Shown here: piece by piece, positions 4,511 through 37,654 of the stretch
How positions within the stretch are numbered: the stretch's first letter is position 1
Layout: each line of letters opens with the position of its first letter
Origin: a virus
Taxonomy: Duplodnaviria; Caudoviricetes
Length of the DNA: 43,185 bases
Reading direction: 5' to 3' (one strand)
Virus record (IMG/VR): IMGVR_UViG_3300005764_000033
Span: 1-43,185 of that record
The notes under the pieces: model-generated
Told to the model about the DNA's origin: nothing
The model's database searches: none
Seen by the model: the letters and a program-made list of their open reading frames with translations, nothing else
Program-made: the position numbers and the translations under genes

Positions 4511-4511
4511 T

Positions 4512-19974: not shown

Positions 19975-20311
19975 GGGGAGTTTTCCCTTCGATCAGTTGG
20001 AGGATGTAGTCGCACGGCTCTTTCACCGAGACAAACTTGCCGTCTGCCATGGTGATGACGCAGCGTGCGCCGGTAACGACCATCTGGTTGGGACCTTTGT
20101 CCTGAGCTTCGCGTGTCGGGTACATCTTGGTGATGAATTGCGGATTGATATGCAGCTTGGCTCCATCGGGCGCTGTCACACTGATCATGAGGGTTGCGGC
20201 AAGGACAATGTTCTTGTTGCGCGTCAGCAGATCAGGCGGCGGCACCGTCACATCGTCAGCGCAAGCGGCCAATAGAAGGATGCTAACTGCGGCGCTCAGA
20301 ATTTCTTGCAA
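19964..20311 (-). CDS. Putative lipoprotein with FlbD/SwrD-like domain
   Basis: Lipobox LLAAC; MISVTAPDGAKLHINPQFI...VITMADGKFVSVKEP resembles the FlbD pattern (recollection). Confidence 0.55.
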   Translation of the reverse strand: MQEILSAAVSILLLAACADDVTVPPPDLLTRNKNIVLAATLMISVTAPDGAKLHINPQFITKMYPTREAQDKGPNQMVVTGARCVITMADGKFVSVKEPCDYILQLIEGKTPRGR

Positions 20312-20577
20312 CTGAGCACCTTACCTCCGGTGCTATAGCAGTGTTGCCCGACCTTGCCGCCTCTGTTGTAGGCCGTCGAGCCTTCGCGCGGACCGGGCGG
20401 CGCGATGAGTTCGTTCTGCTCTCGCAGGCGTCGATCGAGATCGCTGGTATCGGGGGTCGCTGCACGCCGCATGGCGGCCTCGCGGCCGACTCGCTCCCAG
20501 TATCCGGCCGACAACTGCCCAAGTTCTCTCCGAGTAGCAGGGTCGATGGTAGCTGGTGTCGATTTAGTCTCAGCCAT
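20296..20577 (-). CDS. Small late protein with two GG tags (YNRGGKV, YSTGGKV)
   Basis: TGATG coupling; AGGAG RBS; C-terminal motif shared with two neighbours. Confidence 0.75.
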   Translation of the reverse strand: MAETKSTPATIDPATRRELGQLSAGYWERVGREAAMRRAATPDTSDLDRRLREQNELIAPPGPREGSTAYNRGGKVGQHCYSTGGKVLSCKKF

Positions 20578-20858
20578 CACATGCTCCTGCTGCTGATGAC
20601 TTTGCCACCCTTGCACATGCCCGGGCAGGTGCTGGACCCAGCCTTCACCTTGCCGCCTTTGTTATACCAGAAGCCACCCGCCTTGCCGCCCCGCATGCCG
20701 AGGCCGCCGGGGCTGATCGGCACGGCAGCACTCGATCCTGATGGTGGTGGCGCAGGCGTGCTCGATGGCGTGTTGTAACTATCGAGCACGCTGCGATTGA
20801 TCTGGTTGACTTGATCCCAATCGATGCCTTCCGGCTCGACGCGTGGTCGCTTGGCCAT
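20577..20858 (-). CDS. Small late protein with GG tags (YNKGGKV, MCKGGKV)
   Basis: TGATG coupling; GAGGG RBS; shared C-terminal motif. Confidence 0.75.
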   Translation of the reverse strand: MAKRPRVEPEGIDWDQVNQINRSVLDSYNTPSSTPAPPPSGSSAAVPISPGGLGMRGGKAGGFWYNKGGKVKAGSSTCPGMCKGGKVISSRSM

Positions 20859-21220
20859 CACACATCCCTCTTGCTGATCACCTTGCCGCCCTTGCAGTAG
20901 TTGTAGCCGCTCACGCCTCCTTCGGTACTTAGATTAGCACTGCCGCCACCATAGCTGGTGCTGCCGGTGCTGATCTCGCCGCGTTTCTTAACGTGGCCGA
21001 TCACGCGTCCGCTCGTGTCGAGGACATCACCGGACGGGTCTTCGTTCTCTTCGCCGCCTCCGCCGCCGCCAACTAGGCCACCGGCCTGATACGATTTCTT
21101 GCGTGGCAACTTACCCTCCTTCTGCAACGCTGATGTTGCGATCGCCCACGTCGAACTCTCGCTGAGGTTCGGATTGCCGCGAGCGATGGCCTTGCGCCGG
21201 TCTTCTAATATTTTGGGCAT
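20858..21220 (-). CDS. Small late protein with GG tags (YQAGGLV, YCKGGKV)
   Basis: GGAGG RBS; shared C-terminal motif. Confidence 0.75.
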   Translation of the reverse strand: MPKILEDRRKAIARGNPNLSESSTWAIATSALQKEGKLPRKKSYQAGGLVGGGGGGEENEDPSGDVLDTSGRVIGHVKKRGEISTGSTSYGGGSANLSTEGGVSGYNYCKGGKVISKRDV

Positions 21221-21371
21221 TGATCCTCCATATCTCGCATTGATACACCGGGTTGATCACTCCCCAAACGCGTGCGCATCGATTGGTATCGGAGCGGAAA
21301 TGGAAGCAGTTGCTGCAGGTCTTGGTCTTGCGCCACAGCCACCGGTAGTCCACGTCCACCTTGTGCATCAT
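21111..21371 (-). CDS. HiPIP-like 4-Cys protein
   Basis: Y...CSNCFHF.....RCARVWGVINP..QCEIW = C-x2-C-x9-C-x12-C-x2-W; ATGA overlap start; 3' part overlaps the next gene by 110 nt. Confidence 0.55.
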   Translation of the reverse strand: MMHKVDVDYRWLWRKTKTCSNCFHFRSDTNRCARVWGVINPVYQCEIWRINAQNIRRPAQGHRSRQSEPQREFDVGDRNISVAEGG

Positions 21372-21628
21372 GCTGGTGCCGGTGGTGGCGCTAATGAGAA
21401 ACAGATCACCTTGTCGACATCGATCCACCACCTCACACCCTTGTCGTCGGTAAAATCGCAAACGTTGGCCTCGCGATGGTACGTCCAGTTGCCCAGCAAT
21501 GTCTGGCCATTGACCAGCAGTATCTGGCCATAGGTCTGACCGACCGGCAGTATCATCGACGTCGTTGCCGCTCCTGCTGCTTGCTCTCTCAGCAACAATT
21601 CAATGGCAGCGAGTTGTGCGTTCGTCAC
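21368..21628 (-). CDS. Small beta-rich hypothetical protein
   Basis: GGAG RBS, GTGA overlap with upstream stop. Confidence 0.65.
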   Translation of the reverse strand: MTNAQLAAIELLLREQAAGAATTSMILPVGQTYGQILLVNGQTLLGNWTYHREANVCDFTDDKGVRWWIDVDKVICFSLAPPPAPA

Positions 21629-21888
21629 CGCTTGTGCTCCATCGCCGCGTTGCGGAAGCCGCCCTCCACGTACGGCGGGATGCTGTCCTTCGCTGTCGCT
21701 TTGGTCGCGGCCCCTTGGTTGGCGTTGGTCTTGCCACCGGCATCGGACGTGCGCGGCCCGTTGCCGGTGCCGCCGATCAGGCCGGTGTACCGGTCGACGG
21801 CACCGGGGTCTTGCATCGGCTTGTCGCTGATCTCCTTCGACCCCTTGTGGATGTCGGGGTCGGCCTTGCCGAACCTCTGTCCAGCCAT
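21625..21888 (-). CDS. Small disordered late protein (YVEGG near C-terminus)
   Basis: GGAGG RBS, TGATG coupling. Confidence 0.7.
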   Translation of the reverse strand: MAGQRFGKADPDIHKGSKEISDKPMQDPGAVDRYTGLIGGTGNGPRTSDAGGKTNANQGAATKATAKDSIPPYVEGGFRNAAMEHKR

Positions 21889-22055
21889 CACTTCCTCCGT
21901 ATCTTGCCGCCGCGCCGCAGCCCTTGCGCCATCTCCTGCTGCTCGACGCCATACGGCTCGCCTTCACTCTTGGCTTCGCGAGCGATCTTGGCGGTCTGCG
22001 GCACCGGCGGTGCCTTCTTCTTTGCCATGAACGGTGGCAGCTTGCCCTTGGCCAT
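21888..22055 (-). CDS. 55-aa basic late protein ending in LRRGGKIRRK (absent from ORF track)
   Basis: GGAGG RBS; MAKGKLPPFMAKKKAPPVPQTAKIAREAKSEGEPYGVEQQEMAQGLRRGGKIRRK; TGATG coupling. Confidence 0.75.
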   Translation of the reverse strand: MAKGKLPPFMAKKKAPPVPQTAKIAREAKSEGEPYGVEQQEMAQGLRRGGKIRRK

Positions 22056-22057
22056 TG

Positions 22058-25000
22058 TCATCCTCCAATGTTGTAGACATCACGATCGGGTAGGAACGCA
22101 CGCGTACGCCGGTTGACCGGCATGCCCATGTACTCGCCGGGCTGGCCAGCCCGCACCTCGCGGCGGTGCCGGGCCGCTTCGAGTTGATGAACACCAATCT
22201 TAAGCTCAGACGGCAGGTCAGGATTGAACTCCTGCGTGACGTACTGGATGATCCGTCCGCGTTCGGCTGGACTATCGGCCATGGCGTAGGCCGTCAGCAG
22301 GCTGTTCTTCTGGTCGTTGTAGCGCTTCTGCTTGATCTGGAACTCCTGACGGAACTCACCCGCCTCCTGCTGGCGTGCCGACCGGATGCCCAGCGCGGCA
22401 AGGACCGTTTCGGCCGTCGTCGGATCGTAGCCCAGTGGCGCACCGCCCTTGGTCTCGGACTTGCGTCCGCCGATCGCTTGGCTGTAGGCGCGATAGATAT
22501 CACCCACTGCCTTGATCGGGATCGCCTTCTCGACGAACTCGCCATAGTCCCGGTCGGCAGCGGTGTCGAAGCCTTGGCTGGAGTTGATCGCGCCACGGAT
22601 GCCAGCCCGCACACCCTCGGCGATGTCGAACCCCATGCCGCCGGGCGAGCCCAGCGCGAACCGGCCTGCCGCCTCAAACCAACTGGCGGGTGTGTCGCCG
22701 ATGCTGCCGGGCGACAGGAACAGGCTGTCGTAGCCCATGCGCGTGCCGATGCCGAGACCGAGATTGCGCAACACGCCGCGCGTCAATGTCATGCCAAGCT
22801 CTGGCCCCAGCACGTCGGCAGCGCCGTTGCGGGCGGCAATCTCGACGTCGTCCCAGTTCCAATTGATGAGGCCAGCAAACTTGAGCGCGTTGACTGTCGC
22901 CCGCAATGGCTCGGTCGGCAGCCCCAGCATGCCGCTGACGGCGACCTGCGAGGCGGTCCAGTACATCAATTGCTTGAGCGCCACGGCGCGATCTTCAGGG
23001 CTGACATTCTCCTTGCGGCCGAACACCGTCGCAAACAGGCGGAGGTAGTTCGACGCGATGCGATGGCCATAGCGCTTGAACTGCAAGGCAGGCTTGAGCC
23101 ATGGATGGCGGAACATCTCAGCCGACGCGTGCGCGGCGTAGTTGCCGTTGACGTCATGCATCATGTCCTTGGCGTGCGCCAGCGCCGCCTCGTGGCTCAT
23201 GCCTCGCTGGATGGCGAGACGGTACGAGGCGATGGCGGTGACTGCCCGGTTGACGTTCTCGACTTGGTTGTTGACCTGCCGGAAGGCAGTGTCGGTATGG
23301 TCGGTAACCCGACCTAACCAAGTGGCACCGGGATTGAACATCTGCTCTAGTTCCATCCCGGCATTGCGATCGAAGTAGCCATGCTCGTCGACATAGTCGA
23401 ACAGCTTGTTGAGGGCGGCCTCGTCGTGCTGGCCTTTGATCGCGTCGCGCAGCAGCAGGAGGTTGTCGTGGGGATTGAACTCCTTGCCGGTCCACGCGCC
23501 CTTGATCACGTTCTTGAAGTCGGTGCCGCCGCGCCACCACAGCTTGCCCGCACCGACCGCCGCATAGGCGCGCATCAGTTCGCGGTTGGCGTTGATGAAG
23601 CCGTGCTTGCCCGCCAGTAACGGCATGCCCAGCACCCACGGCTCCGACGCGTTGAGCAGCAGGAAGCTCGGACTCATCAGCCGATCGATGTAGGAGACCT
23701 GCAGGGCGCGGGCGAGCCCCTTCTTCCACATCGGTGACGTTTCCGTCTCGGGCTGCTGGGTCAGCGTGCGGTGGATTTGCTGCTGTATCTGAGCGCGCAC
23801 CGTGCCGTAGCGGCCGGTCGGGTCGCCCGGCGACGCTCCCGCCTTGTGCTGCTCGACGTAGTCGTCCATGCGCTTGAGCGCAGCATGGACCTCGGCGGCA
23901 TGCTGGTTATGGGCCAAGGTGAACGCCGTGTTGCGGCCATACTCCACGAAGTTCTTGATCAGGTCCTTGTCGGCCCCCAGCGCGTAGCGGCGCGGCAGGT
24001 AGGTGGCGCGGGCCGACGTCGACATGACGTGGCGCAGCGTCGACTCGTCGAAGTCACGTTTCAGTTGCGCCTTCTCGACGTCGCTCAACATCTCCCAGCC
24101 GGGCGAGTTCTGCAGGCCACGCATCACGGCGGCCTGCGCCCGGCGCGCCTGCATGTCGGGGACGTAGGTCTTCTCGCGATCCCTCACCGGCTCGGTATGG
24201 GTCAACTCCATATCGTCAGGGTTATAGGCATTGCGCAGATCGGCATGGCGCTGCGCCGCCTTGAACTTGCTGGTGTGGAATTCGAGCAGCAGGGGATTGA
24301 ACTCGGCGCGGTATTTGACGATGACGCTGCCATCGTGCTTGACCTTAGGTGCACGCACCGCCTTGCCGTCCTCCATCTTGATGCCGCCAGTCGTCGGGTC
24401 CTTCTCATAGGCAACCTCCCGAACGCGCAGAAGCTTGAGGTCCTTGGTCTTGTCGTTGCCGGTCACGCGGTTGATGAACTGGTCGCGCGCCGCTTCGTTG
24501 TCGAACTCCCAGTCGCCCCGCACGACCTCGCGTGCGTTGGGATCGACCGCCCTTGCATACTGGCCCAGCTTGTAGATGCCCTCGACCACCCACTTGCCGC
24601 GCCGCATCATCGGGTACCAGACGCCGGGCAGCTTGCGGAACTGCGGCACGCTGCGCACCTCGTTGACCCACTTGGTGAACGGCGACTTCTCCTCGTCATA
24701 GCCCTTGATGTTCCTGAGCGCGGCCTCTTCGGCAGATGACAACGGCTCCTGCATGATGTGCTTCTTGAGCGCCTCGACCTGAGCCCGGTCGTTGCTGGGC
24801 ACGTATTGCTTGAGCTTGATCAACTTCTCGATCTGGGAATGCAGGCTTTCACTGTGCCGCTTGCGCGTGAAGTCGAGCAGTTCGTTGCGCATCGCCTTCT
24901 GGTCGGGCGACAGGGCGTTCCACAGGCGCTGTAGCTCGGCATGCTGCGCACGCATCTGTGAATGGCCGACCGATGTCGGGCTGACCCATTTGTTCTCCGG

Positions 25001-28000
25001 GCTGCTGAGCGGATCGGCACCGCTCAAGCCTGCGCGGTTCTCGGCATCGATGTAGTCGACGAACTGCCGCCAGCGTTCGGCGGGCATGCGCGACTGCACC
25101 GCCAGCCGGGACAGCATCTCGTGGGTCTTGGACGCCTCGATGATGTGGCGCGCCGTGGCATACACCTTGTTGACGATGCCTTCGAACGGCGCGACGACCT
25201 CGCGGAACCCCGGCTCGGCGCGGCGGCCCAACTGGTTGATGTCGTGCCAGCGCATGCCGATACCGCTCAGGCCGCCGCGCTGCTGCCAGTAGTATTTGGC
25301 CCGCTCGATGCCCTCCTTGGCGATGTTGCCCGCATCCTCCATGGTGAAGGGATGCACCTCGGCCTTGGCTTCCGGCCGCACCCGGCCCAGTGGCTCGATC
25401 GAATGGAACAGGTCGAGCGAATGGATGATGGCGTCGTTCAACAGCTTGTTTCTGTTGGTCTGCATGAACAGCTTCATGAAGCCGTCGCGGATGACGCGCA
25501 GCGTCTGCTCAAGGAACGACTGGCGCTCCCCGGTGCGCAGGTCACGCCGCAGTTCCGGCGACGTTTCGATGCTGCGCAGCGCCGCCATCAGGCTGCCGTC
25601 GTCGTTGAACAGTTCAGAGATGAACTCGTGAACGTTCTTCAGCGACTGTATGCGGTCGCCAAGGATTTCCCGCACCCGGTTGGGGGCCCACGTGGTTCCG
25701 ACCGACTCATAGTAAGCCTTGTTCAACTCCTGCCGGATGCGATCGAGCTTGGCCGTGATCTCGGGGAACCGCTCGCCTGCCGCCACGGTGAGCGGATGCA
25801 TGAACTCGTGGCCAAGGATGTAAGCGCGGTTCTCGCCGTTGGCGGTGATGTTGTCGGTGAAGATGCGATGGCTGGCTTGGTCGTAGAACGCCGGATGGTC
25901 GCCCTCCAGCCCGCGCCGTTCCTTGACAAGCTGGAACTGCTCGGGCGTCAGCACGACGACATCGACGTCGCCCGACACCTTGTCGACGATGTCGAAGAAG
26001 TGGTTGAGCAGCCGCGCCCGTGGCGACGTGTCGGTCGGGTCAGGGCGGATGCTGCGCTCGCCGGTCAGGAAGTCGCTGATCCGGTGCACGGTGGCACCGC
26101 GCGGTAGGGGCGGCGGCTTAGGCGGCCGGGGCACGGCGCGCTGTGGCATCCACGGCTTGCCCTCGCGCTCGGCGATGGCACGCTGCTCGGCCATCGCCTT
26201 CTCGCGCTGCATCTCGCGCTCGCCCTTGCCGAACAGGCCTCGGGCAGCCCCCTGCTCCTCGTACTTCGGCAGGAAGTCGCGCTCCTCGGGCGTGCGCTCG
26301 CGGATTTGCGTCACCGGCTTGGCCCGCAGGTCGGCCGCCGGATCGAGCACGTCGCCCGTGCGGTAGTCCCAGTTGATCGCTTCCGGGTCGAGTTGCTCGT
26401 AGGCTTGCCGGGTCTTGTCCTGCAGCAGCGCGATCTCTTCGTCGATCATGCGCGTCAGCCGGTCCAGCGTCTCGTACTTGATCGGCAGGCCCTCCAACGG
26501 CATCGCGGCCGTGCGCAGGTAATAGCGCAAGGTCTGGATCACTGGCTTAAGCTCGCCGATGCCGACACGCTGCGGGATGTAGCTGCGCGCCTGCATCAAC
26601 TCCTCGATGCGGGCATTGTTGGCATGCACCTGCTGATCGGCCTCCTCACGCGTCAGCTTGGGGCCCGCCGCGGCCTTCTCGATCTCCCTGATGCTGCCGT
26701 CGATCTGCTCCTGCGTGCGGCCGTCACGGGCGATCAGCGAGCGCTTGAAGGCTTCGTCGTTCTGCCGCTTCTGCTCACGCGAGAGTTGGACTTCATCCTC
26801 TTCGGGCAGCCGTCCCTTGGGGCCGAACCGAGCGGCGTAGAAATCAAGCAGCCGCTTGCGCAGTTCCTCGTTGATGTCCGGTTTGTCCATGTACTCGGCA
26901 ATGGCTTCGCTGAACTCGGCGATGCTGCGGCCGGACCGGGTCTGCATGTCCTCCATGGCGTCGCGTATCTCGGCCAGCTTGTCGAGCCGCTTGCGCGCCC
27001 GGTCGACTGCCGCCCTGTCGACCTTCAGCGACTCGGCCCGTTCATAAATCTCCCGGCCGCGCTTGGTCTGGTTGCCACCGGCCGCTTCGGCCTGCCGATA
27101 GAGTTCCTGCCGCATGGCATCCTGACGTTCGTACTCGTCGATGATGCCCTGCTGCTTGATCGTGTCGGCCGCCACATCCTCGTACAGGATGCTCTCGCCA
27201 TGCTTGTTGAGCGCAACCACCTCGTCGAGCTTACCGGCTTGGATCAGACGCTCGCGCATCCACGCATCGAGCAACCGGTTGCGCAGCAGCCGTTGCGGCT
27301 CCATGCCGCGCCCGCTGGCAACCCGGTCACGCAGGTTCAACAGCATGCCGACGCGCTGGTTGTAGTCGCTCAGCACGTCGTACCACGGATTGACGCCGCT
27401 GACCCTGCTGCCGATCCTGAAGGAGACTTGCGGCCGACGCGGGCCGCCCGGCGGATAGAGTTCAAGCTCCAGCTTGCGCAAGGCGATGTTGCCCTCGGCC
27501 ACCCGATGCATCATCAGGCCAATCAGGCGATCGGCTGCCTCGACCAGCTTGTCCTTGTCGACGCCGTCGAGCGGCAACTCGTGAGCTTCGCCGACCGGCA
27601 ATGCCTCTTCGGCGGTGCCGCGCAGGCGCACACGACCGGCAGGCGTGATCAGGTCGTTGAGATACTGGCCCAGACTGATGCGCTCGGCCGCCATGCCGGG
27701 AGCGCGTTCGATCAGTCTCGGTTCTTCTTTCTTGCCAACCTTCCGCTCGATCGGCTTGTCGGCGTCGAAGAAGTCCACTGGGATGCTGTCGGCATGCATC
27801 TCGGGGTCTTCCAGCACCGCCTTGAGCACGACCTCGCGGGCATCCTGATCGGGCTTGGTGCGGCCTTCCTTGCGGGCGCGCTCCTTGGCCAGCTTGGCGG
27901 CAGCCCGGGTCGCCCGCTGGACCTCGGGGCTGCGCGCGATCGAACGCCGTGCCCTGTCTGCGATGATGCGGATGGCTTCTTGGGTGGCGCCGATCTCGTT

Positions 28001-31000
28001 AGCCATCTGCTGGAGATCGACGATGCGGTGCAGGCGCGCCTCCTCGACCCGCGATCTCTCGACCGACTTCTCCCATTCAGCCTGCCGCTTCTCCTCGGTC
28101 GCTGCGATCTCGGCCTTGATTTCGGCTTCGCGTTGCTCGGCGCGCTGCCGTACCCGCTCGGCGATAAGTCTGGCGCGCGGTTCGGGCGGCAACCAACGCG
28201 GCTCGCCTTCCTCGGGCCAGATGCCGCGCATCTGCCCCTTGGTGCGCTGTGCGTACTCCATGGTGGTCGTCGGCTCGAAGCCATACTGCACCGGGCCCCT
28301 CTCGCCCACGACCCTGCGCCGCAGCCTACCGGTCGCCTTGCGCAGTTCCTCCATCTCAGGTGTGCGCTCGGCACGCGCCTTGGCCTGTTCAAGGCGGCGC
28401 GCGACTTCGACAGCCGTGCGCAGCCTGCCGGGCATGCGCGCGACAAGACCGACTGCTCGTTGGGCTCTGAGGGTGCCGGGTTGGAACCTACCCTCACGGG
28501 TAAGTCCCAACGTTGCAGCGAGACGCTTAGCCCGTCTTCCAGCAGGAGACGGTTCTACGACAGGTAGCCAGCGCGGACCGACTAGCGGCCTTTCGCCCGG
28601 CTCGACTTCCGGCCCGTACTCGCCCGGCGGCTTCGGGATGACTTCCTTGAAGACATCGAAGGCGTGCTCTGCTTCTGCTTCTTGACGGCTCGGTTCTTCG
28701 CCACGTGGTTCTCCCTCTGGGGGGCGACGTTCACCCTCCGGTTTGTATTCACCGAGTTCACCCGCCTCCATCTCACGACCGGGGACAGGTTCGTAAGGGC
28801 CCTCTTCGTAGCGCCGTTCGGGCTCCTTACCGCGCAGTTCATCAGCGAGTGCGCGTAAGTTCCTTTTTACCACATCGCGTACATCGGCTTCCATGCCTTT
28901 AACGGCTTCGCGCCACGATCGTGGCATGCGTGCATAGTTGCCTTTGGTCTTTTCCAGTGCATCTGCCCATTCGGCCCGCTGTGCTGACGTACCCTTGTCC
29001 TTTAGCCGTTGAACAGTGTCGTGCTCCTTGGGCGTGAAGCCGCTCGGCTCGGGCGGCACCTCGCGAATGCCGCGGCGGAACTCGGCGATGACGGCACGGG
29101 GATGATCACGCAGCAGGCGCTCGACACGCTCGTCGTACTTCAGCCCGGCGATGCGGCTGAGCGATGCCGTCTCGCCGCGCTCGTGCATGCGCTCCAGCAT
29201 CTGGGCGATGCGGACCCGCTGGGCAGGCGGCACGTCGCGTATCGTCTTGCGGATCGCCGCGCGATCGGGATACGGCAACTCTGCTTCGACCGGCTCGCCC
29301 CTAACCTCACCAGCGCGTCGCCGCCCGCCTGCCAATTCGAGCTTCGCTTCGGCCGCCGCCTCGTGCCGCGCCTTGACCTCGGCGGCGCGTTGCTTGGCCG
29401 CTTCGGCCTCGGCTTCCTCACGCGCCTTGGCTTCGCGTTCTGGCACTTCAACTGGTGCAGCCCGCTCGATCGGCAGTTCACGAACCGGCGGCCGGGCTGC
29501 GGGTTCACGTCCGGGCTCGACGAGATGGCCATAGTCATAGCCACCGCGCACCTCGCGAGGATGGATGTCCTCGCCGGTGATCAGCATCTCGCGCGCGGGT
29601 GCAGGCGGCGGGCCATACTGTACTTCAGCCTGAGGCCCGTACTCGCCATACGCCTGTCGTGCTTGTTCACGCGCCATCCTGCGGCTCGGCGTGCCGCGCG
29701 GCGTATAGCCTTCCACCGGAGCGACCTCGGCAGGCTCCATCGGCACGCCACCCATGACGGGTGGCCGCGCGCCATACTCGGCACCGTACTCGCTGGGATG
29801 GATGTCGGTCTCCCACATCGGGCGTGGCGGACGTGGCGGAGGCGGTCCACCTCCACCGCCGCCTCCGCCACGGGGCGGGGGACCGCCTCTCGGCGGTGGA
29901 GGTGTCGGCGGCGACGGAGGTGGAGCACCTGCAGGTCGGCCGCCGGGCGGGATTTCTTCGCCGTACTCGGAAGGCGTCGGCGGATAGATGTCGCCCTCGA
30001 CCATCGGGCCGCGAGCCGGTGGCTCGGGCCAACCGCCACGGGGCCGCGATGGATAGGGCACCTCGGGTGGCGCATAGCCGCCCGGTGGCGGCAGCACGCG
30101 AGGCTCATGGATGACGCCGCTGCCCAGTGCCGAATATTCAGTTGCGCCAATGTCCTCTGGTACTATCCCCGGTACTGGACCATATCGTGGCGCGCCCGGG
30201 CCGAGATGACTCGGATAGAGCGGTGTCTTCGGCCCGGACTCGCCATACTCGCTCGCACCGATATCGCCGGGCGTCATCTCCTCCGCGCCGCCGGTCGCAA
30301 TCGGTCGCGGCGTTCTCGACGGCTGGCCATAACCCTGCGCCTGCATGCGCGCTGTCGTCACCGTGTCGGTGCCGATCGGCGGCGCGGTCGTGCGGCGATG
30401 CGTCAGCGCACCGACTGCGCCAAACGTTAGGCCCTGCTTGACCGCCTCTTCCTTGACCGCTCCGTAATCAATATTGGGCCGCAGCCCCATGGCGACGTCG
30501 GTCGCTTGCGACGTGTAGGCACCGCCACCGCCCATCGCCGCGCCGCCGACACCGCCCTGCAGGCCGCCGATCGCTTTACGTCCCGCCCAGTTGGCGACGC
30601 CGGGGCCTTGATTGACGTTCGCCAGAATGCGGTCGGTGATGTTGCCCGCCTGCGTGCGCATGAACCCCTTGGTCATCATGCCAAGGGCACCGCCACCGAT
30701 GATGTTGCCGATCACGGCAGGAGCAACGTTCTCCCACGTCTCCAGCTTAGAGAGGTCGGTGCCCTTGGTGTACAGGTTCTCTCTCAACTCCTCGTCACTC
30801 TGACCCGGATACTCGCGCAATTGGTCAAGTTGTTCTTTCGGCAGGTTCATCACCCGCTCGCGCGCCTGCACGCGCTGGCCACCCAGCGCCAGCGCACCGA
30901 ACGCAAACGGCGCGGCGGGACCGGTTGCCGCCAACGGTGCATACGGCACGATGCCAGTGGCCACGTCGGTGATGTCGTCGATCGTCGTCTTAGCTTCGGG

Positions 31001-31291
31001 ATGCTGGGTGCGATACTGACCGGCGGCTGTCTTGCCGCGCTCTATCCATTCACTGGCCCTTGCCAGTTCATCCATGTCACGGCGCGCTTGCGTCTGCTGC
31101 GGACCGGGGACCGTCGCCGCTTCGCGCAAGCCGCCGATGTCGCGCACCACGCCCAAGCCACCCTTGGTGACGTCGAGGGCAACGTCACGCAGGTAGCCAC
31201 CGATACCCTCGCGCCTCGGAGCCGGGGTCTCCGGCGCGTTGGTCGCCATGCCGAAGCCGGTATAGGCGTCTGGTGTCGGTTCGTTGGCCAT
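22058..31291 (-). CDS. Giant internal virion/ejection protein (polyvalent-type) with zincin-like HExxH domain and PLxRFG-like segment
   Basis: 3077 aa; ILGHEFMHP...HEFISE; WYPMMRRGKWVV; hydrophobic Gly-rich N-terminal region; last of three large genes after the tail genes. Confidence 0.75.
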   Translation of the reverse strand: MANEPTPDAYTGFGMATNAPETPAPRREGIGGYLRDVALDVTKGGLGVVRDIGGLREAATVPGPQQTQARRDMDELARASEWIERGKTAAGQYRTQHPEAKTTIDDITDVATGIVPYAPLAATGPAAPFAFGALALGGQRVQARERVMNLPKEQLDQLREYPGQSDEELRENLYTKGTDLSKLETWENVAPAVIGNIIGGGALGMMTKGFMRTQAGNITDRILANVNQGPGVANWAGRKAIGGLQGGVGGAAMGGGGAYTSQATDVAMGLRPNIDYGAVKEEAVKQGLTFGAVGALTHRRTTAPPIGTDTVTTARMQAQGYGQPSRTPRPIATGGAEEMTPGDIGASEYGESGPKTPLYPSHLGPGAPRYGPVPGIVPEDIGATEYSALGSGVIHEPRVLPPPGGYAPPEVPYPSRPRGGWPEPPARGPMVEGDIYPPTPSEYGEEIPPGGRPAGAPPPSPPTPPPPRGGPPPRGGGGGGGGPPPPRPPRPMWETDIHPSEYGAEYGARPPVMGGVPMEPAEVAPVEGYTPRGTPSRRMAREQARQAYGEYGPQAEVQYGPPPAPAREMLITGEDIHPREVRGGYDYGHLVEPGREPAARPPVRELPIERAAPVEVPEREAKAREEAEAEAAKQRAAEVKARHEAAAEAKLELAGGRRRAGEVRGEPVEAELPYPDRAAIRKTIRDVPPAQRVRIAQMLERMHERGETASLSRIAGLKYDERVERLLRDHPRAVIAEFRRGIREVPPEPSGFTPKEHDTVQRLKDKGTSAQRAEWADALEKTKGNYARMPRSWREAVKGMEADVRDVVKRNLRALADELRGKEPERRYEEGPYEPVPGREMEAGELGEYKPEGERRPPEGEPRGEEPSRQEAEAEHAFDVFKEVIPKPPGEYGPEVEPGERPLVGPRWLPVVEPSPAGRRAKRLAATLGLTREGRFQPGTLRAQRAVGLVARMPGRLRTAVEVARRLEQAKARAERTPEMEELRKATGRLRRRVVGERGPVQYGFEPTTTMEYAQRTKGQMRGIWPEEGEPRWLPPEPRARLIAERVRQRAEQREAEIKAEIAATEEKRQAEWEKSVERSRVEEARLHRIVDLQQMANEIGATQEAIRIIADRARRSIARSPEVQRATRAAAKLAKERARKEGRTKPDQDAREVVLKAVLEDPEMHADSIPVDFFDADKPIERKVGKKEEPRLIERAPGMAAERISLGQYLNDLITPAGRVRLRGTAEEALPVGEAHELPLDGVDKDKLVEAADRLIGLMMHRVAEGNIALRKLELELYPPGGPRRPQVSFRIGSRVSGVNPWYDVLSDYNQRVGMLLNLRDRVASGRGMEPQRLLRNRLLDAWMRERLIQAGKLDEVVALNKHGESILYEDVAADTIKQQGIIDEYERQDAMRQELYRQAEAAGGNQTKRGREIYERAESLKVDRAAVDRARKRLDKLAEIRDAMEDMQTRSGRSIAEFSEAIAEYMDKPDINEELRKRLLDFYAARFGPKGRLPEEDEVQLSREQKRQNDEAFKRSLIARDGRTQEQIDGSIREIEKAAAGPKLTREEADQQVHANNARIEELMQARSYIPQRVGIGELKPVIQTLRYYLRTAAMPLEGLPIKYETLDRLTRMIDEEIALLQDKTRQAYEQLDPEAINWDYRTGDVLDPAADLRAKPVTQIRERTPEERDFLPKYEEQGAARGLFGKGEREMQREKAMAEQRAIAEREGKPWMPQRAVPRPPKPPPLPRGATVHRISDFLTGERSIRPDPTDTSPRARLLNHFFDIVDKVSGDVDVVVLTPEQFQLVKERRGLEGDHPAFYDQASHRIFTDNITANGENRAYILGHEFMHPLTVAAGERFPEITAKLDRIRQELNKAYYESVGTTWAPNRVREILGDRIQSLKNVHEFISELFNDDGSLMAALRSIETSPELRRDLRTGERQSFLEQTLRVIRDGFMKLFMQTNRNKLLNDAIIHSLDLFHSIEPLGRVRPEAKAEVHPFTMEDAGNIAKEGIERAKYYWQQRGGLSGIGMRWHDINQLGRRAEPGFREVVAPFEGIVNKVYATARHIIEASKTHEMLSRLAVQSRMPAERWRQFVDYIDAENRAGLSGADPLSSPENKWVSPTSVGHSQMRAQHAELQRLWNALSPDQKAMRNELLDFTRKRHSESLHSQIEKLIKLKQYVPSNDRAQVEALKKHIMQEPLSSAEEAALRNIKGYDEEKSPFTKWVNEVRSVPQFRKLPGVWYPMMRRGKWVVEGIYKLGQYARAVDPNAREVVRGDWEFDNEAARDQFINRVTGNDKTKDLKLLRVREVAYEKDPTTGGIKMEDGKAVRAPKVKHDGSVIVKYRAEFNPLLLEFHTSKFKAAQRHADLRNAYNPDDMELTHTEPVRDREKTYVPDMQARRAQAAVMRGLQNSPGWEMLSDVEKAQLKRDFDESTLRHVMSTSARATYLPRRYALGADKDLIKNFVEYGRNTAFTLAHNQHAAEVHAALKRMDDYVEQHKAGASPGDPTGRYGTVRAQIQQQIHRTLTQQPETETSPMWKKGLARALQVSYIDRLMSPSFLLLNASEPWVLGMPLLAGKHGFINANRELMRAYAAVGAGKLWWRGGTDFKNVIKGAWTGKEFNPHDNLLLLRDAIKGQHDEAALNKLFDYVDEHGYFDRNAGMELEQMFNPGATWLGRVTDHTDTAFRQVNNQVENVNRAVTAIASYRLAIQRGMSHEAALAHAKDMMHDVNGNYAAHASAEMFRHPWLKPALQFKRYGHRIASNYLRLFATVFGRKENVSPEDRAVALKQLMYWTASQVAVSGMLGLPTEPLRATVNALKFAGLINWNWDDVEIAARNGAADVLGPELGMTLTRGVLRNLGLGIGTRMGYDSLFLSPGSIGDTPASWFEAAGRFALGSPGGMGFDIAEGVRAGIRGAINSSQGFDTAADRDYGEFVEKAIPIKAVGDIYRAYSQAIGGRKSETKGGAPLGYDPTTAETVLAALGIRSARQQEAGEFRQEFQIKQKRYNDQKNSLLTAYAMADSPAERGRIIQYVTQEFNPDLPSELKIGVHQLEAARHRREVRAGQPGEYMGMPVNRRTRAFLPDRDVYNIGG

Positions 31292-31292
31292 T

Positions 31293-34200
31293 TCAATCTC
31301 TCGGGCGAGTTGCTGCCTCTACGACAGGGCCGACAATAGGGAGCATCGGTGCGACCGTGCGCAAGGCAGCACCGGCGGTCGACCAACTCGGCGTCCACGA
31401 ACTCTTCTTGTCCTTGTTCTGTTCGTAGTTCTTCCAGTTGTTTTGGTGCTGCGCAACGATCCGGCTGTAGGTCGCCGCATCGACGAGGATGCTGGTCCCG
31501 TCGCCGAACCGCAGCAAAGTATTGGGATACGTCGCCGAACCAACGCGCGAAGCGCGTTGACCTTCCGCTATAGGTTGGAACTTGGTCGCCTTGCCGCCCT
31601 TCTGCCGGTTCAGTCCGACCGGGTCCGGTATGTCCTTCGACGGTGGCATGATCGACGTCGCCTGCAGGGCAAGCTCATAGGCCTGATCAGGCGTGAGCTT
31701 GTGGCTGTTCTGGGCGTAGATTTGCGTCGCGATCGTGTCGATCGTGGCGCTGTCGTTTGGACCTGCATAACGCAACGGCGAAGCATTCACTCGTCCAGCC
31801 ACATCGCCGGTCGGGTTGGTCTTGGCTTCCTTGGCCATGGCCTCGCGCTGCTCCTTGTAGCCCGCCTTCAAGTTCGCGTTGTCGGTCGGCGTGATGCGGA
31901 TCGGCTTGGTCTCTTCCCGGTCCGCCTTTTCCTCAGCTTGGAACTTGGCAATCGCCGTCTTCCTATCGGCCTCCACCTGCTTGATCAGATCGTCGAATTC
32001 TTTCCGCTTGGCCGTGATCAGGTTGGTCACCGAACTCGGCAGGTTGTTCGACTTGCGGCTGATCAGGCCGCGCCGGGCCGCACTCTCGACGATCGCATCC
32101 CCAATTCGTTTTCTGCCATCTTCAAGCTCAGCGATCCGGTCGTCGTACGCCTTGATATTGGGTGGCGGCGCTGCCGTCTCGCTATGCCGTTGCGGCAACG
32201 GCGCATAAGGGTCTTTGTCCCAGTGCTTCTGCTGCTGGTCGTCGCTGGCGGCTTTGGCCTTCTGCTCTGGCGTTTGCGGCTCGGGTGCTTTCTGTGTCGG
32301 TGGCTTCTGTTCGCCGCCGCCCTGCTCGGGCATCGGAGCACGCTGCTCCCCGCCGCCGGGTCGCTGGGTTGTCGGTGGCGGCGGTGGAGCAGCGGCCCCC
32401 GCAGTCGGCGTCGGCCCGGCGGGGGGCGTCGACGGCGCTGCTGGTGGCGTAGTCGGAGCGGTAATCTGGATAGCCTGCGTCGGACCGAATTCATCACTCG
32501 GCGGGGCTAGCGTGGCCGCTAGAGGGGTGGGCGCGGGTGGAGTGGGCGCAGGGGGCGGCGCTGGCGGCGGCTGCGTAGCGGCCGTTTGCGGGCTCATAGC
32601 GGGGGTCGTCGCAGGCGGCGGGTTTGTCGCCTGCGGACTTGGCATGGGAGCCGCCGACCCGGGCGGCGATGGCTGTGGTGTCGCGGCCGGGGGTGAAGCT
32701 GCTGGCCCAGCCGGGGCCGCCTGAGGCTGGGCCACTGGCGGAGCGGCGGCGGGCGGGGCTCTACTTGGAGCCTGAGGCGCGTTACTTGGAGCCTGCGGAT
32801 GGTCGGACCCTACCGGCGCGCCGTTGCTGCTGTGGATGACATCCCACGCCAACTGGCCCGACATCATGCCCAGCGACAGGTTCTGCAACGTGCCGGGCTG
32901 CACCGGGATGGTTGCGCCGACCTTGCCGTCCGGCCCGGTGACGACGATCGAGTTGCTCCGTTGGTCGTAATGGGGAGTACCGCTGTCGGGTATCCAGCCG
33001 TAGCCCGCCATCAACTGGTTCATCGCGCCGTTGGTGTCGCCCTTCTGCAGGGCCTTCATGGCTTCGGCCCCGTGCTGCTTGGCCTGCTGGTTGCCGAACT
33101 GGGTGATCGCAAACGACGCTGCGTCAGCTGCCTTTTGATCACCCTTGGCCATGTGGAAATCGTGCACCGCTTTAGTCGCAGCGATCATCTTCTCGTGCGG
33201 CGGCAACTTATTGTCGGGATCGACGATCTTGAACACATTGTCGACATCGACCGGTGTAGCTGCCCCATGACCTTGCGCCAATGCGAGCTTGCCCTCAGGC
33301 GTGTCGCCATAAGTCGCCTTGGCATGGTTCGACGCGCCTTGGATGGCGTAGTTGTAATCGTTAGTCGCGCTGTTTGAACTGAGGCCCGCGCCATAGACGT
33401 TGGAGCCCTGCGGGTTCATGCCGTAGCCACCCTGCGGCGAGGTGACGGGCGGCGCTGTGCTGATCGCACCATTCCCCGTACGGGGAGCCTCGCGCACCGG
33501 AAGGCCGTCCGGCCCCAACCGGCCGACAATCTGACCATTGGCATCGATGATCAAACCCGACCGAGGATCGAGCGGTGCCTTACTCGGATCGAACGCCTTG
33601 TCGCGCGGGTCCACCTGTCGTGGCGCGCCACCGCCACCGCCAGCGCCACGAGCGCGTGGCGGCGGACCTTCCGTCCCCGGACCGTACTGTGTCGGCCCCT
33701 TGGGCGGCGCTCCCGCTGGCTGATTAGTGTACTGAGGCGGCGGAGCCTCCGTCTGTGGCGGCACGTCGGGCTCGGTAGCCGCTGCCGTACCACCTTGCGG
33801 TCTAACTTCACGCCGTTGCGGCGTGATCGTCTTCGGCGGCGCGTCCTTGCCTTCGGCCCAGTCCCACGCCCGCTGGCGATCATCGGTGGTGTATCGCGGA
33901 TCAGACGGATCGAGCAGATGCGTCGGCTTCTGCCATGGCAGACGATCATCCTCACTGCCGCCCACACCGGGCCCGGCAAGCCCTGCGCCGACACCCAGTT
34001 GCGGCGTGCCCTGCGGCGGCACGTCGGGTTCGGTGCCTGCCGCCGCACCGCCGCCGCGTAGCGGTGGCCGTCGCCGCTGCTCATACGAACCACGCGACGG
34101 CGCGTCGAAGTCAGCAGGGTTGGGAGGGTTGGTCACGGAGCGCGGCGCGTCAGGACGTGGCGGGAACGGTCCCGGCATCGGGGTGTATTGTCCGCGCCAT

Positions 34201-35537
34201 CCCAGATTGCGCAGACGTGCCGCGTAGCCTTCCGGGTCCTCACCGGGTGCCGGTGGCGGCCGTGTATCGACAGCTGCTGCTGTTTGCTGTGGTTCGTCTG
34301 CCCGCCGGGCAACCGCCCGTCGTGCGCGGTCCTGCTCACTGCGGTCACGCACATCGGGCTGGCTGAGATCGGGCGGGCCCGGTGGCCGTTCCCACGACCG
34401 TCCCAGCATGGGCGGCGGCACCGAGATGCGCGTCGCGTCATAGCGGGGATCGGCCCGTTCATAATCCTGTATGGGCAGGTCTACCAAGCGGCCCTGATCA
34501 TCGACATAGCTGACGCCGTCACCAACCGGCAGGTTGTCCCTGACCCGGGGCGTCGGCGTGCCGCCACCCTGCAGATGCACGCGACCGCCACGGCGGTATC
34601 CGCCAGCAGAGGGCGGACTGGATGCGTCGTAACGAGACCAATCCGGTGCACCTTGACTGCGCTCTGCCCATTCGCGCATACCCTGTCGACCGCGCCAATA
34701 GCCCTCGTAGCGATCACGTATCTCATCACGTCGTGCTTGGTCTTTGGCGCTGACTTCCGCTTTGTAACCAGCGGTGTCGGTGATGCGTCCTCCCTCTTGA
34801 TATCCCGTTTCGCCAATGTTAGGCGGCGGAGGTGCGGCGATCTCGCCGTAGCCTGAGCCCGGTCCCGTCGTGCCTGCACCGGCGGTGGGCACGCGCGGCG
34901 AGATGTTGGTCGGCATGATCGGTGGCGTCACTGGCGGCGACAGCGGTTGCCCTGTTTGCCCGTCTGTCGGTTGTTGATTGCGCGGCCGGTAACGATTGAT
35001 CCCACCCATGACACCACTCGCGAAGCGACCCATGGGCGACGTGTTGATTGCGCCACCTCTAGCGTAACTGTTGGCGCGCACTCGACCGCCGCGCGCCATG
35101 CCGGTGCTGCTATCATTGTCGAACCCGCCACTGGTGTCACCATCGCCCGGCGGCGCGCTCGGCGCTTGAATGTTGTCGCCGCCGCCGGTCGGAGCCGGAG
35201 CCGGAGCCGGTGGCTGCGGTGACTGCACACCAAACTCGCCATACAATCCAGCAACGGCGTCGTTAGAACCACCGGCTGCGACAGCACCGCCACGACCAGT
35301 TCCCTTTCGCCGCAAGTAATCAGCGTAGGCACCCGACTGCGTGATATACGCATCGTTCCTGCGCCGCTGCTCAGCAAGCTGGTCACGCCGCCAGTCTGCC
35401 TGCGCCCGCCAATGCGCCAATTGCGCCGCCGCTTGCTGCTTTTTGAGTTCGCGGTCCTCGGCCTTCTCCCACCAGTTGGTGCCGATGCCGAGACCCTTGA
35501 TGAAGTAGTCGGTGAAAACCCGGAGCGCCCTGCTCAT
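31293..35537 (-). CDS. Large Pro-rich internal virion protein
   Basis: 1414 aa, largely low complexity; carries several GG tags; position in the ejection-protein block. Confidence 0.7.
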   Translation of the reverse strand: MSRALRVFTDYFIKGLGIGTNWWEKAEDRELKKQQAAAQLAHWRAQADWRRDQLAEQRRRNDAYITQSGAYADYLRRKGTGRGGAVAAGGSNDAVAGLYGEFGVQSPQPPAPAPAPTGGGDNIQAPSAPPGDGDTSGGFDNDSSTGMARGGRVRANSYARGGAINTSPMGRFASGVMGGINRYRPRNQQPTDGQTGQPLSPPVTPPIMPTNISPRVPTAGAGTTGPGSGYGEIAAPPPPNIGETGYQEGGRITDTAGYKAEVSAKDQARRDEIRDRYEGYWRGRQGMREWAERSQGAPDWSRYDASSPPSAGGYRRGGRVHLQGGGTPTPRVRDNLPVGDGVSYVDDQGRLVDLPIQDYERADPRYDATRISVPPPMLGRSWERPPGPPDLSQPDVRDRSEQDRARRAVARRADEPQQTAAAVDTRPPPAPGEDPEGYAARLRNLGWRGQYTPMPGPFPPRPDAPRSVTNPPNPADFDAPSRGSYEQRRRPPLRGGGAAAGTEPDVPPQGTPQLGVGAGLAGPGVGGSEDDRLPWQKPTHLLDPSDPRYTTDDRQRAWDWAEGKDAPPKTITPQRREVRPQGGTAAATEPDVPPQTEAPPPQYTNQPAGAPPKGPTQYGPGTEGPPPRARGAGGGGGAPRQVDPRDKAFDPSKAPLDPRSGLIIDANGQIVGRLGPDGLPVREAPRTGNGAISTAPPVTSPQGGYGMNPQGSNVYGAGLSSNSATNDYNYAIQGASNHAKATYGDTPEGKLALAQGHGAATPVDVDNVFKIVDPDNKLPPHEKMIAATKAVHDFHMAKGDQKAADAASFAITQFGNQQAKQHGAEAMKALQKGDTNGAMNQLMAGYGWIPDSGTPHYDQRSNSIVVTGPDGKVGATIPVQPGTLQNLSLGMMSGQLAWDVIHSSNGAPVGSDHPQAPSNAPQAPSRAPPAAAPPVAQPQAAPAGPAASPPAATPQPSPPGSAAPMPSPQATNPPPATTPAMSPQTAATQPPPAPPPAPTPPAPTPLAATLAPPSDEFGPTQAIQITAPTTPPAAPSTPPAGPTPTAGAAAPPPPPTTQRPGGGEQRAPMPEQGGGEQKPPTQKAPEPQTPEQKAKAASDDQQQKHWDKDPYAPLPQRHSETAAPPPNIKAYDDRIAELEDGRKRIGDAIVESAARRGLISRKSNNLPSSVTNLITAKRKEFDDLIKQVEADRKTAIAKFQAEEKADREETKPIRITPTDNANLKAGYKEQREAMAKEAKTNPTGDVAGRVNASPLRYAGPNDSATIDTIATQIYAQNSHKLTPDQAYELALQATSIMPPSKDIPDPVGLNRQKGGKATKFQPIAEGQRASRVGSATYPNTLLRFGDGTSILVDAATYSRIVAQHQNNWKNYEQNKDKKSSWTPSWSTAGAALRTVAPMLPIVGPVVEAATRPRD

Positions 35538-36952
35538 GTGCGTGCTCCCTCTGACCGGAACATCGGCGGCTCAGCCATGATGGCCTGCGACACAGGCTTC
35601 TCTTCGCCCTCCGCCACCGTTTGGGTCTGCGCTTCCTTGTCGGCCTTGTTGATCAGGTTCTGGAAGAACTTCTCACCGTACCAATCGACCGTGCGCTCGG
35701 GCACGACGAACTCGCCCTCGCTCACCATGGCGTTCACGTCATCGACGTTCGCGCCGCCGCTGGGCGATGCTTCAGGCGGCACCATATGACCGCCATCCAT
35801 CGGCGACCCCGTGTCGATCGCGCCGCCCCGGGCATATCGCGGGATGCGACGACCCCTAATCCTGCCGCCTTCGGCGAGCCCACCAAAGATGCTCTTGCCA
35901 CCTGTGCTGCCGAACGGCCCGCCTGTGTAGCCACTACTGCCACTGCCAAAAGCGGCACTGCCAAGCGCCTTACCTGCCATGCTGCCAACAGCACTCCCCG
36001 CCGGACCAAGGAACGATCCGGCAATGCCACCTGCCAGACCAAGCAAAGCGCCCGCACCCGATCCCTGAGACTGAGCCTCTTGGTTGGCCTTGAAGGCGTC
36101 GAGACTTGCCCTGTAGTTGCTCAGTTGCTCATTGAAGCTGTTCGCCATCGTCGACCCCCACTGCTGCATGTAGGGGAACGCCGCCGAGTACATGCCCATG
36201 CTGGGCGAGTAGAGACCCGACGCGGTTGATGCGGCTGCGTTGGGTGCCTGTGTCTGCAGGCCAAGGGCCTGTGTCTGGATGCCTTGCTGGCTGGTCCCGT
36301 ATTGCGGCAGGAACTGCTCTTGGCCCAGTGCTTGCGCCGTGACGCCGCGCGCCTCGGTACGCGCCGCCAACCGCCCCGCCTCTCCCGCCGCTGTTGTCGC
36401 CAAGGCCCGGTTGGTCGCCGCCATGGTGTCGAGCGCACCGGTCGCCGCCGCGTTGGGCGGAAGGCCACGCGCTTCCATGTCACGAATGGCCGACGCCTTC
36501 TGCTGGTCGAGCGCCATCGCCGTGTCGGACGCCTGCTTACCGGCATACAGTTCCTCGGTCTGCGGCAGGTTACCGATCATGCGTTGGGCGTCGGCTGCCT
36601 GCGCCTCGTAGAGCGGCGTCGACAGGCGTTGCCACAACTGTGTGGCTTGCTGGCCCCAGCTACCCGCCTGATCAGCAGTCGCACCGGCTTTGTCGGACAC
36701 TGTCTTAGCAATGCTGGTGATGTCGACGCCGGTCTTCTTGGCCCAGTCCATCAGGTCCTGAGCCCACTGCATGCCTTGACCACCGATCTTGGTCATCTGG
36801 GCGATATACGAGGAGTAGTCCGGCACGGTCGGCGTCTGCTGGGTGAACTGCTCGCTACCGCCGCCACCGTTCATGATGTGCTTGTTGACAACCGGGTGCG
36901 GTGCCCATGGATCATCGAGGACATGGACGAAGCCGTCATCATGCAGGCGCAT
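35534..36952 (-). CDS. Internal virion/DNA ejection protein with tape-measure-like C-terminal domain
   Basis: GGAG RBS before ATG 36952; A/Q-rich helical body; Gly-rich hydrophobic segment GALLGLAGGIAGSFLGPAG; YARGG...DDVNAMVSEGEFVVP domain. Confidence 0.75.
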   Translation of the reverse strand: MRLHDDGFVHVLDDPWAPHPVVNKHIMNGGGGSEQFTQQTPTVPDYSSYIAQMTKIGGQGMQWAQDLMDWAKKTGVDITSIAKTVSDKAGATADQAGSWGQQATQLWQRLSTPLYEAQAADAQRMIGNLPQTEELYAGKQASDTAMALDQQKASAIRDMEARGLPPNAAATGALDTMAATNRALATTAAGEAGRLAARTEARGVTAQALGQEQFLPQYGTSQQGIQTQALGLQTQAPNAAASTASGLYSPSMGMYSAAFPYMQQWGSTMANSFNEQLSNYRASLDAFKANQEAQSQGSGAGALLGLAGGIAGSFLGPAGSAVGSMAGKALGSAAFGSGSSGYTGGPFGSTGGKSIFGGLAEGGRIRGRRIPRYARGGAIDTGSPMDGGHMVPPEASPSGGANVDDVNAMVSEGEFVVPERTVDWYGEKFFQNLINKADKEAQTQTVAEGEEKPVSQAIMAEPPMFRSEGART

Positions 36953-37400: not shown

Positions 37401-37654
37401 GTCAGCGTCCCCACCTTCAACCACTTGCCATGGAGCGCGACGTTGAGAGTGAAGTTGGTGCCCAGCGTGCACAGCCAAAGCCTGCCGTCGCGGTCGGCGT
37501 CAGGCGTGGTATCCTGCACGTAGATGCCCGCCATGCGCACGCCCACGCTGACACCGACGATCTGGTCCACACTTTCCTTCAAGCGCATGCAGCACTGTTG
37601 CAGACTGTTGAGATCAGGTTGCGGGATGGGGATTTGGGCGTAATGGGCGGTCAT
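37397..37654 (-). CDS. Small tail-associated protein
   Basis: TGATG coupling after the tail stabilisation gene; short coiled coil plus DGRLW beta motif. Confidence 0.65.
   Translation of the reverse strand: MTAHYAQIPIPQPDLNSLQQCCMRLKESVDQIVGVSVGVRMAGIYVQDTTPDADRDGRLWLCTLGTNFTLNVALHGKWLKVGTLT

Follow-up and report, generated by a model that had tools for sequence, protein, structure and literature searches.

Background

Maturation cleavage of virion proteins and signals that address cargo to the particle are both known kinds of viral process. Sites of the form GG|X are cut by the maturation proteases of adenovirus and African swine fever virus (ASFV) and by C39 double-glycine peptidases, the capsid targeting sequence (CTS) of phage T4 is an address and a cut site at once, and Peptidase_S74 is a self-removing domain. 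We have examined a seven-residue peptide tag, [YMLF]-x-x-G-G-x-[VI] (the strict tag), which recurs in putative ejection proteins and small late proteins encoded by the IMG/VR virus record IMGVR_UViG_3300005764_000033 (Duplodnaviria; Caudoviricetes), an incomplete phage genome (CheckV 69%) whose 43,185 bases make up the whole stretch analysed, here called the window. The first of these ejection proteins, E1, ends in a domain that we call the GEFV module. We hypothesize that the tag marks the sites at which a cargo polyprotein is cut during maturation, and that it probably also serves for docking, a reading that we hold to be on balance the probable one.

The described systems closest to this locus resemble it in different ways. 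According to the accessible text of PMC10038345, the tape-measure protein (TMP) pb2 of phage T5 is cut after R1127 into pb2* and pb2C, the site having been mapped by mass spectrometry (MS). Like the situation proposed here, pb2 is an ejected virion protein cut between positions 1 and 2 of a tag-like sequence that follows a hydrophobic stretch; it differs in belonging to a siphophage, in having a single site with Arg at P1, and in a downstream domain not measurably homologous to GEFV, whereas in the window the tag is repeated over six podophage proteins, five of them without the module. Lambda gpHC, JBD30 gp46 and the mycobacteriophage TMP gp16 (PDB 8zdo) share with E1 the order of glycine-rich hydrophobic stretch, tag, GEFV and helix, although gpHC has a second tag after the module that is absent from the window E1. 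The crassvirus cargo protein 1 (crAss001 gp45, PF25725) is likewise the first ejection protein after the tail-tip gene, with repeated AxGG tags and a compact tag-led domain with a GE-V core; unlike E1 it gives no hidden Markov model (HMM) or profile match to the window module, and its authors report no cleavage in the accessible text.

Other parallels are more distant. The Peptidase_S74 chaperone (PF13884) of phages PBC5 and Skulduggery occupies the same place in a homologous E1, but is unrelated in sequence and begins with Ser, and these two phages lack E1/E2 tags. The T4 CTS and encapsulin cargo peptides are, like the tag, short signals common to unrelated internal proteins; unlike the CTS, the window tags are internal or C-terminal and repeated rather than N-terminal, and no prohead protease was found. 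Adenain and the ASFV and C39 enzymes cut after GG, in contrast to the T5 site, which is cut before Ala. No description of the motif or the module was found in the open-access PMC and bioRxiv literature, as judged from search listings.

Results

The tag in the window

Thirteen strict tags, all on the minus strand, are present in six otherwise unrelated late proteins (E1, E2 and four small proteins); a sequence-only reading of the window had named all 13, and each lies where it was placed. E1 carries LAEGGRI at residue 359 (35858..35878) and YARGGAI at residue 373 (35816..35836), and E2 carries MARGGRV at residue 147 (35079..35099), YARGGAI at 158 (35046..35066), YQEGGRI at 246 (34782..34802) and YRRGGRV at 314 (34578..34598). 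The remaining seven are LRRGGKI in a 55-57-aa protein (21900..21920), YQAGGLV (21071..21091) and YCKGGKV (20879..20899) in a 120-aa protein, YNKGGKV (20646..20666) and MCKGGKV (20598..20618) in a 93-94-aa protein, and YNRGGKV (20350..20370) and YSTGGKV (20317..20337) in a 93-aa protein. Ala occupies position 2 in 4 of the 6 E1/E2 tags and in 0 of the 7 small-protein tags. Codons vary from copy to copy, as that reading had noted, and its central claim, a peptide-level tag common to ejection proteins and small late proteins, holds up.

The enrichment check that it had proposed, late against early arm, gave a clear result: the late arm (8206 aa, 23 open reading frames (ORFs)) holds 15 strict matches, compared with 1.18 in whole-protein shuffles and 1.49 when shuffling was local over 30 residues, and none of 1000 shuffles reached 15 (maximum 7). 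The two late-arm matches beyond the 13, at the fibre C-terminus (41532-41512) and in a membrane protein (19597-19577), look like chance. Both flanking residues fit at 15 of 127 late GG sites, against 4.3 expected. Strict tags had gone unnoticed in the early arm; it contains two in 5920 aa, FAKGGAI (6142-6162, in a 544-aa protein) and LRRGGDV (4494-4514), a chance-level count that 118-143 of 1000 shuffles reach. Tag-like matches also occur in an early-arm protein of 400-460 aa in three relatives (L101:9391-10776, L105:14278-15627 and L118:1305-2513); these and the match in the 544-aa protein are possibly ordinary beta-turns. The tag itself is real.

The tag in relatives

Since the pattern had been drawn from the window, an independent test was made in relatives, namely 80 loci found via the E1 C-terminal domain, with crude ORF calling and with identical proteins taken once but kin otherwise unthinned. 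E2-class proteins contain 89 strict tags against 6.5 expected (40 of 68 proteins tagged), and small genes 3' of the giant ejection gene contain 7 against 0.9 (6 of 93 tagged); the corresponding figures for E1, 66 against 5.3 in 49 of 61 proteins, are biased by the query, and at least one strict tag is present in 63 of 73 E1 homologues. There was no excess in the giants (6 against 12.2 expected, 5 of 47 tagged) or in upstream genes (30 against 30.6, 680 ORFs). In relatives the tag is thus confined to E1, E2 and small late proteins, with giant and tail proteins not enriched. The consensus from 161 copies is [YF]-A-[EDRA]-G-G-[AP]-[VI], with Ala at position 2 in 59% although the pattern does not demand it. 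Copy number per E2 ranges from 0 to 6, and among tandem tags a spacing of 8-9 residues is commonest (12 of about 60 intervals).

Several single cases were recorded in these loci. Giants as a class show no enrichment, yet that of Rhizobium phage RHph_TM3_14A (L003:17472-24395) carries a loose tag at residue 31. Small genes directly 3' of the portal gene (L103:1297-1644 and L004:8356-8574) encode tag-like variants with other last residues. Roseobacter phage CRP-13 gp55 (L005:26136-29762), a tagged GEYV protein of 1208 aa whose gene lies between portal and scaffold, combines three strict tags with the module (HMM E 2e-16), and tags recur in a small basic gene at another locus of that phage. A locus scan via the lysin gave one close relative, L084, without a tagged ORF among those printed.

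E1 and the GEFV module

E1 (35534..36952, minus strand, 472 aa; PHROG 8003, virion structural protein, E 3e-22) consists of a helical body, a glycine-zipper stretch, two tags and the C-terminal GEFV module. Its gene comes after the nozzle and GNAT genes, as it does in BcepIL02, PBC5 and RHph_TM3_14A, and the E1s are alignable; an identical E1 is present on a 62.6-kb contig. The glycine-zipper hydrophobic stretch (approximately residues 290-332; 35957..36085, minus strand) is likely to be the membrane-inserting end of mature E1, a role suggested by its sequence, and BcepIL02 gp66 stops just past its equivalent. The module (approximately residues 389-440; 35633..35788, minus strand) comprises a degenerate tag, SPS-G, DDV-A, GEFV-P and two helices. 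Invariance across the 90 modules compared is limited to Asp, Ala, Glu and Phe.

No Pfam family matched the module. The E1 C-terminal domain matches tape-measure PHROGs, and a module profile finds 5255 clusters at 50% identity (E up to 0.001). A podophage profile (A2) aligned with a tape-measure profile (A4) at a probability of 98% (E 9e-14), and in the PDB the A4 profile found lambda gpH (E 7.6e-4), JBD30 (1.3e-3) and the mycobacteriophage TMP 8zdo (1e-16). PDB sequence searches by podophage-only profiles gave no significant match, and the direct comparison of A2 with lambda gpH was weak (E 4e-4, probability 36%). The kinship with the lambda gpH module that the sequence-only reading had suspected is borne out by these profile comparisons, and the lambda motifs that it had named are right (F733, GEFV at 754, Y778). 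By these comparisons, tag and GEFV form one module common to E1 and tape-measure proteins including lambda gpH. In the window E1 a tag lies upstream of the GEFV core, after a glycine-rich hydrophobic stretch, as in the gpHC-type module; a second tag after the helix, absent in the window E1, is present in 75 of 121 tape-measure-type modules, and tags stand on both sides in 70 of 121, the upstream count being biased by selection. In some very long tape-measure-like proteins (3600-7800 aa; P0194, P0199, P0201, P0282, P0288 and P0305) the unit tag-GEFV-helix-tag is repeated 5-10 times.

Structure prediction was less informative. AlphaFold2 resolved only two helices in the window domain (pLDDT 62) and only helices in a two-tag tape-measure module (pLDDT 69), with no strands at either tag; a Foldseek search of the module model against the PDB returned nothing. 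The beta-strand docking of free tags that the sequence-only reading had suggested did not show in these two AlphaFold2 models. A predicted complex of two window GEFV modules, their own strict tag omitted, with the 34 C-terminal residues of the 93-aa protein scored 0.10, a value that weighs neither way on binding.

Known and possible cuts in other phages

T5 pb2 supplies the one mapped cut found in a tagged protein. Its residues 1127-1133 read RAEGGMM, the only copy of the loose pattern in 1219 aa, and the register of the cut is R|AEGGMM, between tag positions 1 and 2, before Ala and not after GG. All seven T5-like TMPs aligned retain R|Ax[GS]G, down to about 40% identity. Maturation cleavage, one of the two functions suggested by the sequence-only reading, has thereby gained experimental support from outside the window, in the register R|AEGG rather than the GG|X that had been supposed.

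In crAss001 gp45 the resolved portal-wing-bound part spans residues 425-552 according to the accessible text of PMC10172136. Residue 425 is the Ala of N|AFGGWL, another tag stands at 559, and the tail-bound segment 214-245 is flanked by two further copies. Among 65 gp45 homologues, many of them near-identical, there are 232 loose tags against 14 expected and 67 strict tags against 13.7 (for the crassvirus alignment, 3 of 27 loci were dropped, one with in-frame stops). Lambda gpH sheds about 14 kDa, the site and the enzyme being stated as unknown in the available text of PMC12617516; a cut at F733|A734 would yield 12.5 kDa. The accessible text of the phiTE, DT57C and Xop411 papers contained no mapped cut site.

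Replacement of the module and tagging of E2

In the E1s of PBC5 and Skulduggery the module's place is taken by Peptidase_S74 (E 6e-11 and 2e-8), and the E1 of BcepIL02 simply ends there. In compact E1s such as that of RHph_TM3_14A the tag begins within a few residues of the BcepIL02 end point; in the window E1 a further 25-30 residues or so precede the first tag. The GEFV module is exchangeable within the E1 family. Peptidase_S74, usually a domain of tail spikes, here ends the first ejection protein, as Pfam confirms for two cultured phages (L363:14053-15255, PBC5 gp19; L364:20777-21940, Skulduggery gp25), and the E1s of the metagenomic loci L438 and L440 are S74-like by eye. PF13884 did not match the window module, and the profile comparison of S74 with the module was negative.

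When loci were picked by their nozzle gene, 35 of the 50 GEFV-type loci had a tagged E2, compared with 0 of the 4 complete loci that lack GEFV (Fisher p 0.012, kinship uncorrected). This test began with 80 loci, from which 2 without a nozzle ORF, 13 without a recognised E1, 4 with a truncated E1 lacking the module, 6 without E2 and 1 duplicate were dropped. Four cultured phages without GEFV have no strict tag in E1/E2-region proteins, and two chance-like copies in their giants.

E2, E3 and the small late proteins

E2, the second ejection protein (31293..35537, minus strand, 1414 aa), has its tags in a region of low hydrophobicity, and belongs to the class enriched in relatives. The giant E3 (22058..31291, minus strand, 3077 aa; PHROG 37402, E 4e-75) has none; the expectation that ejection proteins are tagged is therefore correct for E1 and E2 and fails for E3.

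Five small genes follow, all on the minus strand. The small basic 55-57-aa protein (21888..22061) carries LRRGGKI 9 residues from its C-terminus and has tagged tblastn homologues in genomes G001 and G005; by eye, a comparable small tagged gene is present in G002 and G003. The 87-88-aa protein (21625..21891) carries YVEGGF, a near-match singled out by the sequence-only reading that is not a strict tag, yet is conserved in two relatives (G003 and G005) together with the following C-terminal ten residues, and absent in two others. The 120-aa protein (20858..21220) carries YQAGGLV and YCKGGKV, and the 93-94-aa protein (20577..20861) has a 52% identical homologue in G003. The core of the 93-aa protein (20296..20577) corresponds to a tag-bounded E2 segment of G002, with 49% identity (E 1e-11), or 54% (E 3e-9) with tags masked, and the match lies between two tags.

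Such correspondences are not confined to this gene: a 107-aa gene of locus L017 matches E1 or E2 segments of three other loci, two of them between tags, and with tags masked 2 of 45 small tagged genes match inside E1/E2 of other phages, 3 of the 4 alignments lying between tags. The small window genes are probably real, since small tagged genes are present in 5 of 5 whole relatives examined and stand-alone tblastn homologues were found there for 4 of the 5 window genes.

Genome setting and search for a protease

The plus arm of the window encodes DNA polymerase, exonuclease, helicase and primase-type proteins, and the minus arm an adaptor, fibres, a nozzle-type protein, a GNAT-like gene, E1, E2 and E3 (472, 1414 and 3077 aa), small genes and an M15 lysin. 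The window has no gene for terminase, portal, scaffold or capsid, while complete relatives of 58-65 kb do have head genes; the closest cultured relatives are Rhizobium phages, for example RHph_TM3_14A. The order nozzle-GNAT-E1-E2-giant is common to the window, BcepIL02, PBC5 and Skulduggery, and because of this order and the PHROG labels we take E1-E3 to be ejection proteins. Gene order likewise suggests the nozzle role of the tail protein at 37654..39597 (minus strand; PHROG 511, E 5e-114), and the GNAT-like gene preceding the ejection genes (36939..37400, minus strand) has a below-cut-off match to Pfam Acetyltransf_3 (E 0.0015). A 91-aa HNH-like gene (18710-18985) closes the late arm, and a 115-aa lipoprotein-like ORF (19964-20311) has a short FlbD match.

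Neither 30 window proteins nor 30 selected ORFs of the complete relative G001 contained a member of the adenain/ASFV (clan CE), C39 or prohead protease families. G001 does encode a DUF2201 putative metallopeptidase with a VWA-like domain in its early arm (L101:17812-19347) and a Tad2-like anti-defence domain near the terminase (L102:14036-14362).

Discussion

The reading that we favour, a cut site that is probably also a dock, draws on the T5 cut, the start of the resolved crAss001 fragment, the mass lost by lambda gpH, the exchange with S74, the co-occurrence of module and E2 tags, the segments shared between small genes and E1/E2, and the giants with 5-10 modules. E1 would be held in the assembling head via its C-terminal GEFV module, and E2 and the small proteins would have their tags read at that site as well and would be loaded in the process. 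During particle assembly the chains would be cut just before the second residue of the tag, X|AxGGxV, freeing a mature E1 that ends soon after the membrane hairpin (predicted pieces of 359, 14 and 99 aa) and splitting the front of E2 into small internal pieces of 147, 11, 88 and 68 aa and an 1100-aa core. The co-occurrence, the invariant acidic residues and the exchange with S74 suggest that the reader would most likely be the GEFV module itself, acting in cis and in trans; the alternative is a separate phage or host protease. The register rests on the T5 cut, and for the window phage it is a prediction by analogy. Segments that occur both free and inside E1/E2 fit a polyprotein, and an address borne by every cargo would produce the same picture.

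A number of observations weigh against this reading. The mapped cut comes from T5, outside the group of the window phage, and the Arg and Met that fill positions 1 and 7 there do not fit the strict pattern. In profile comparisons neither T5 pb2C nor crAss C1 has measurable homology to GEFV (hhalign scores for pb2C fall within column-shuffled controls, C1 gives no HMM or profile match to the window module, E 0.084, and PF25725 was not found in the window genome), so that the T5 and crAss links rest on a short motif and its position; an ESM Atlas score of 0.80 toward crassvirus cargo protein 1 is a lead only. The boundary of a cryo-EM model need not equal a chain end, the crAss authors take gp45 as one chain in the accessible text (PMC10172136), and a search of the peer-review file found neither 'cleav' nor 'proteol'. 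For lambda, 12.5 kDa is 1.5 kDa under the reported 14 kDa and residue 715-720 fits better, and the JBD30 authors, in the accessible text, predict another site, 1066, and call the module a hook (PMC11445458). Kinship confounds the co-occurrence, the loci without GEFV being some of the remotest, and AlphaFold2 and Foldseek gave no catalytic geometry for the module. Finally, cutting the small proteins would clip just 9-16 end residues; their strict tags, without Ala at position 2 and mostly terminal, suit an address better than a cut.

The main rival is accordingly that the tag is an address only, binding the GEFV module, the portal or the scaffold and drawing cargo into head or tail, uncut in podophages; we consider this unlikely, though it deserves to be taken seriously. 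Tags stand 8-14 residues from the C-terminus in all four small tagged proteins of the window and in 9 of 20 small tagged genes of relatives, stand-alone modules retain tags, the CRP-13 GEYV protein is encoded between portal and scaffold, and, in the accessible texts, the tag-led domain of crAss gp45 sits on the portal wing (PMC10172136) and the recruitment of P22 ejection proteins is conjectural (PMC4992974). An address, however, leaves both the exact coincidence with the T5 cut and the exchange with Peptidase_S74 unexplained, tags also occur in tape-measure proteins, whose assembly takes place in tails and involves no portal, and the giant ejection protein would need loading too, yet is untagged. 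Less probable again is a structural role, in which the tag would be a beta-turn unit zipping cargo chains into an ordered bundle for storage and ejection: the prevalence of 8-9-residue tandem spacing would suit it, as would the tape-measure-type modules tagged on both sides (upstream count selection-biased), but AlphaFold2 placed no strands at either tag of a two-tag module, neither the number of copies (0-6 per E2) nor their spacing is fixed, and the T5 cut is not accounted for.

A GG|X site of the adenovirus/ASFV or C39 kind, read by a dedicated cysteine protease, seems very improbable. The adenain consensus has a hydrophobic residue three positions ahead of GG, and the GG core of the tag is preceded in the same way; the mapped T5 cut, however, lies before Ala, the residue two after GG is constrained, as is seen where both flanks fit at late GG sites, and no such protease family appeared among the proteins searched. 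That the matches are a by-product of glycine-rich composition has next to no probability left: the tagged regions are indeed rich in Gly, Pro and Ala and the pattern was defined after the data had been seen, but local shuffles keep composition and yield 1.5 matches rather than 15, and independent loci give 89 against 6.5 in E2 with no excess in giants and tail genes. The shuffles, the E2-class enrichment and the enrichment in gp45 homologues refute it.

Beyond the favoured cut-and-dock reading we offer a wider conjecture, which taken whole is doubtful: the 50-residue GEFV module may be an undescribed Asp/Glu-based self-processing reader, docking X|AxGG tags and cleaving them both in cis and in trans, with one dock-and-cut code running across podophages, siphophages (T5, lambda) and crassviruses, and with E2 and gp45 as cargo polyproteins.

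Conclusions

If cutting at tags is correct, lambda gpHC would start at A734 (12.5 kDa), which predicts a long-unmapped cut, and crAss001 gp45 would be cleaved at the tags, in which case the fragments seen in tail and capsid could be separate chains. E1 and E2 of the window phage group would mature as polyproteins, and the portable tag could serve to load proteins into phage heads.

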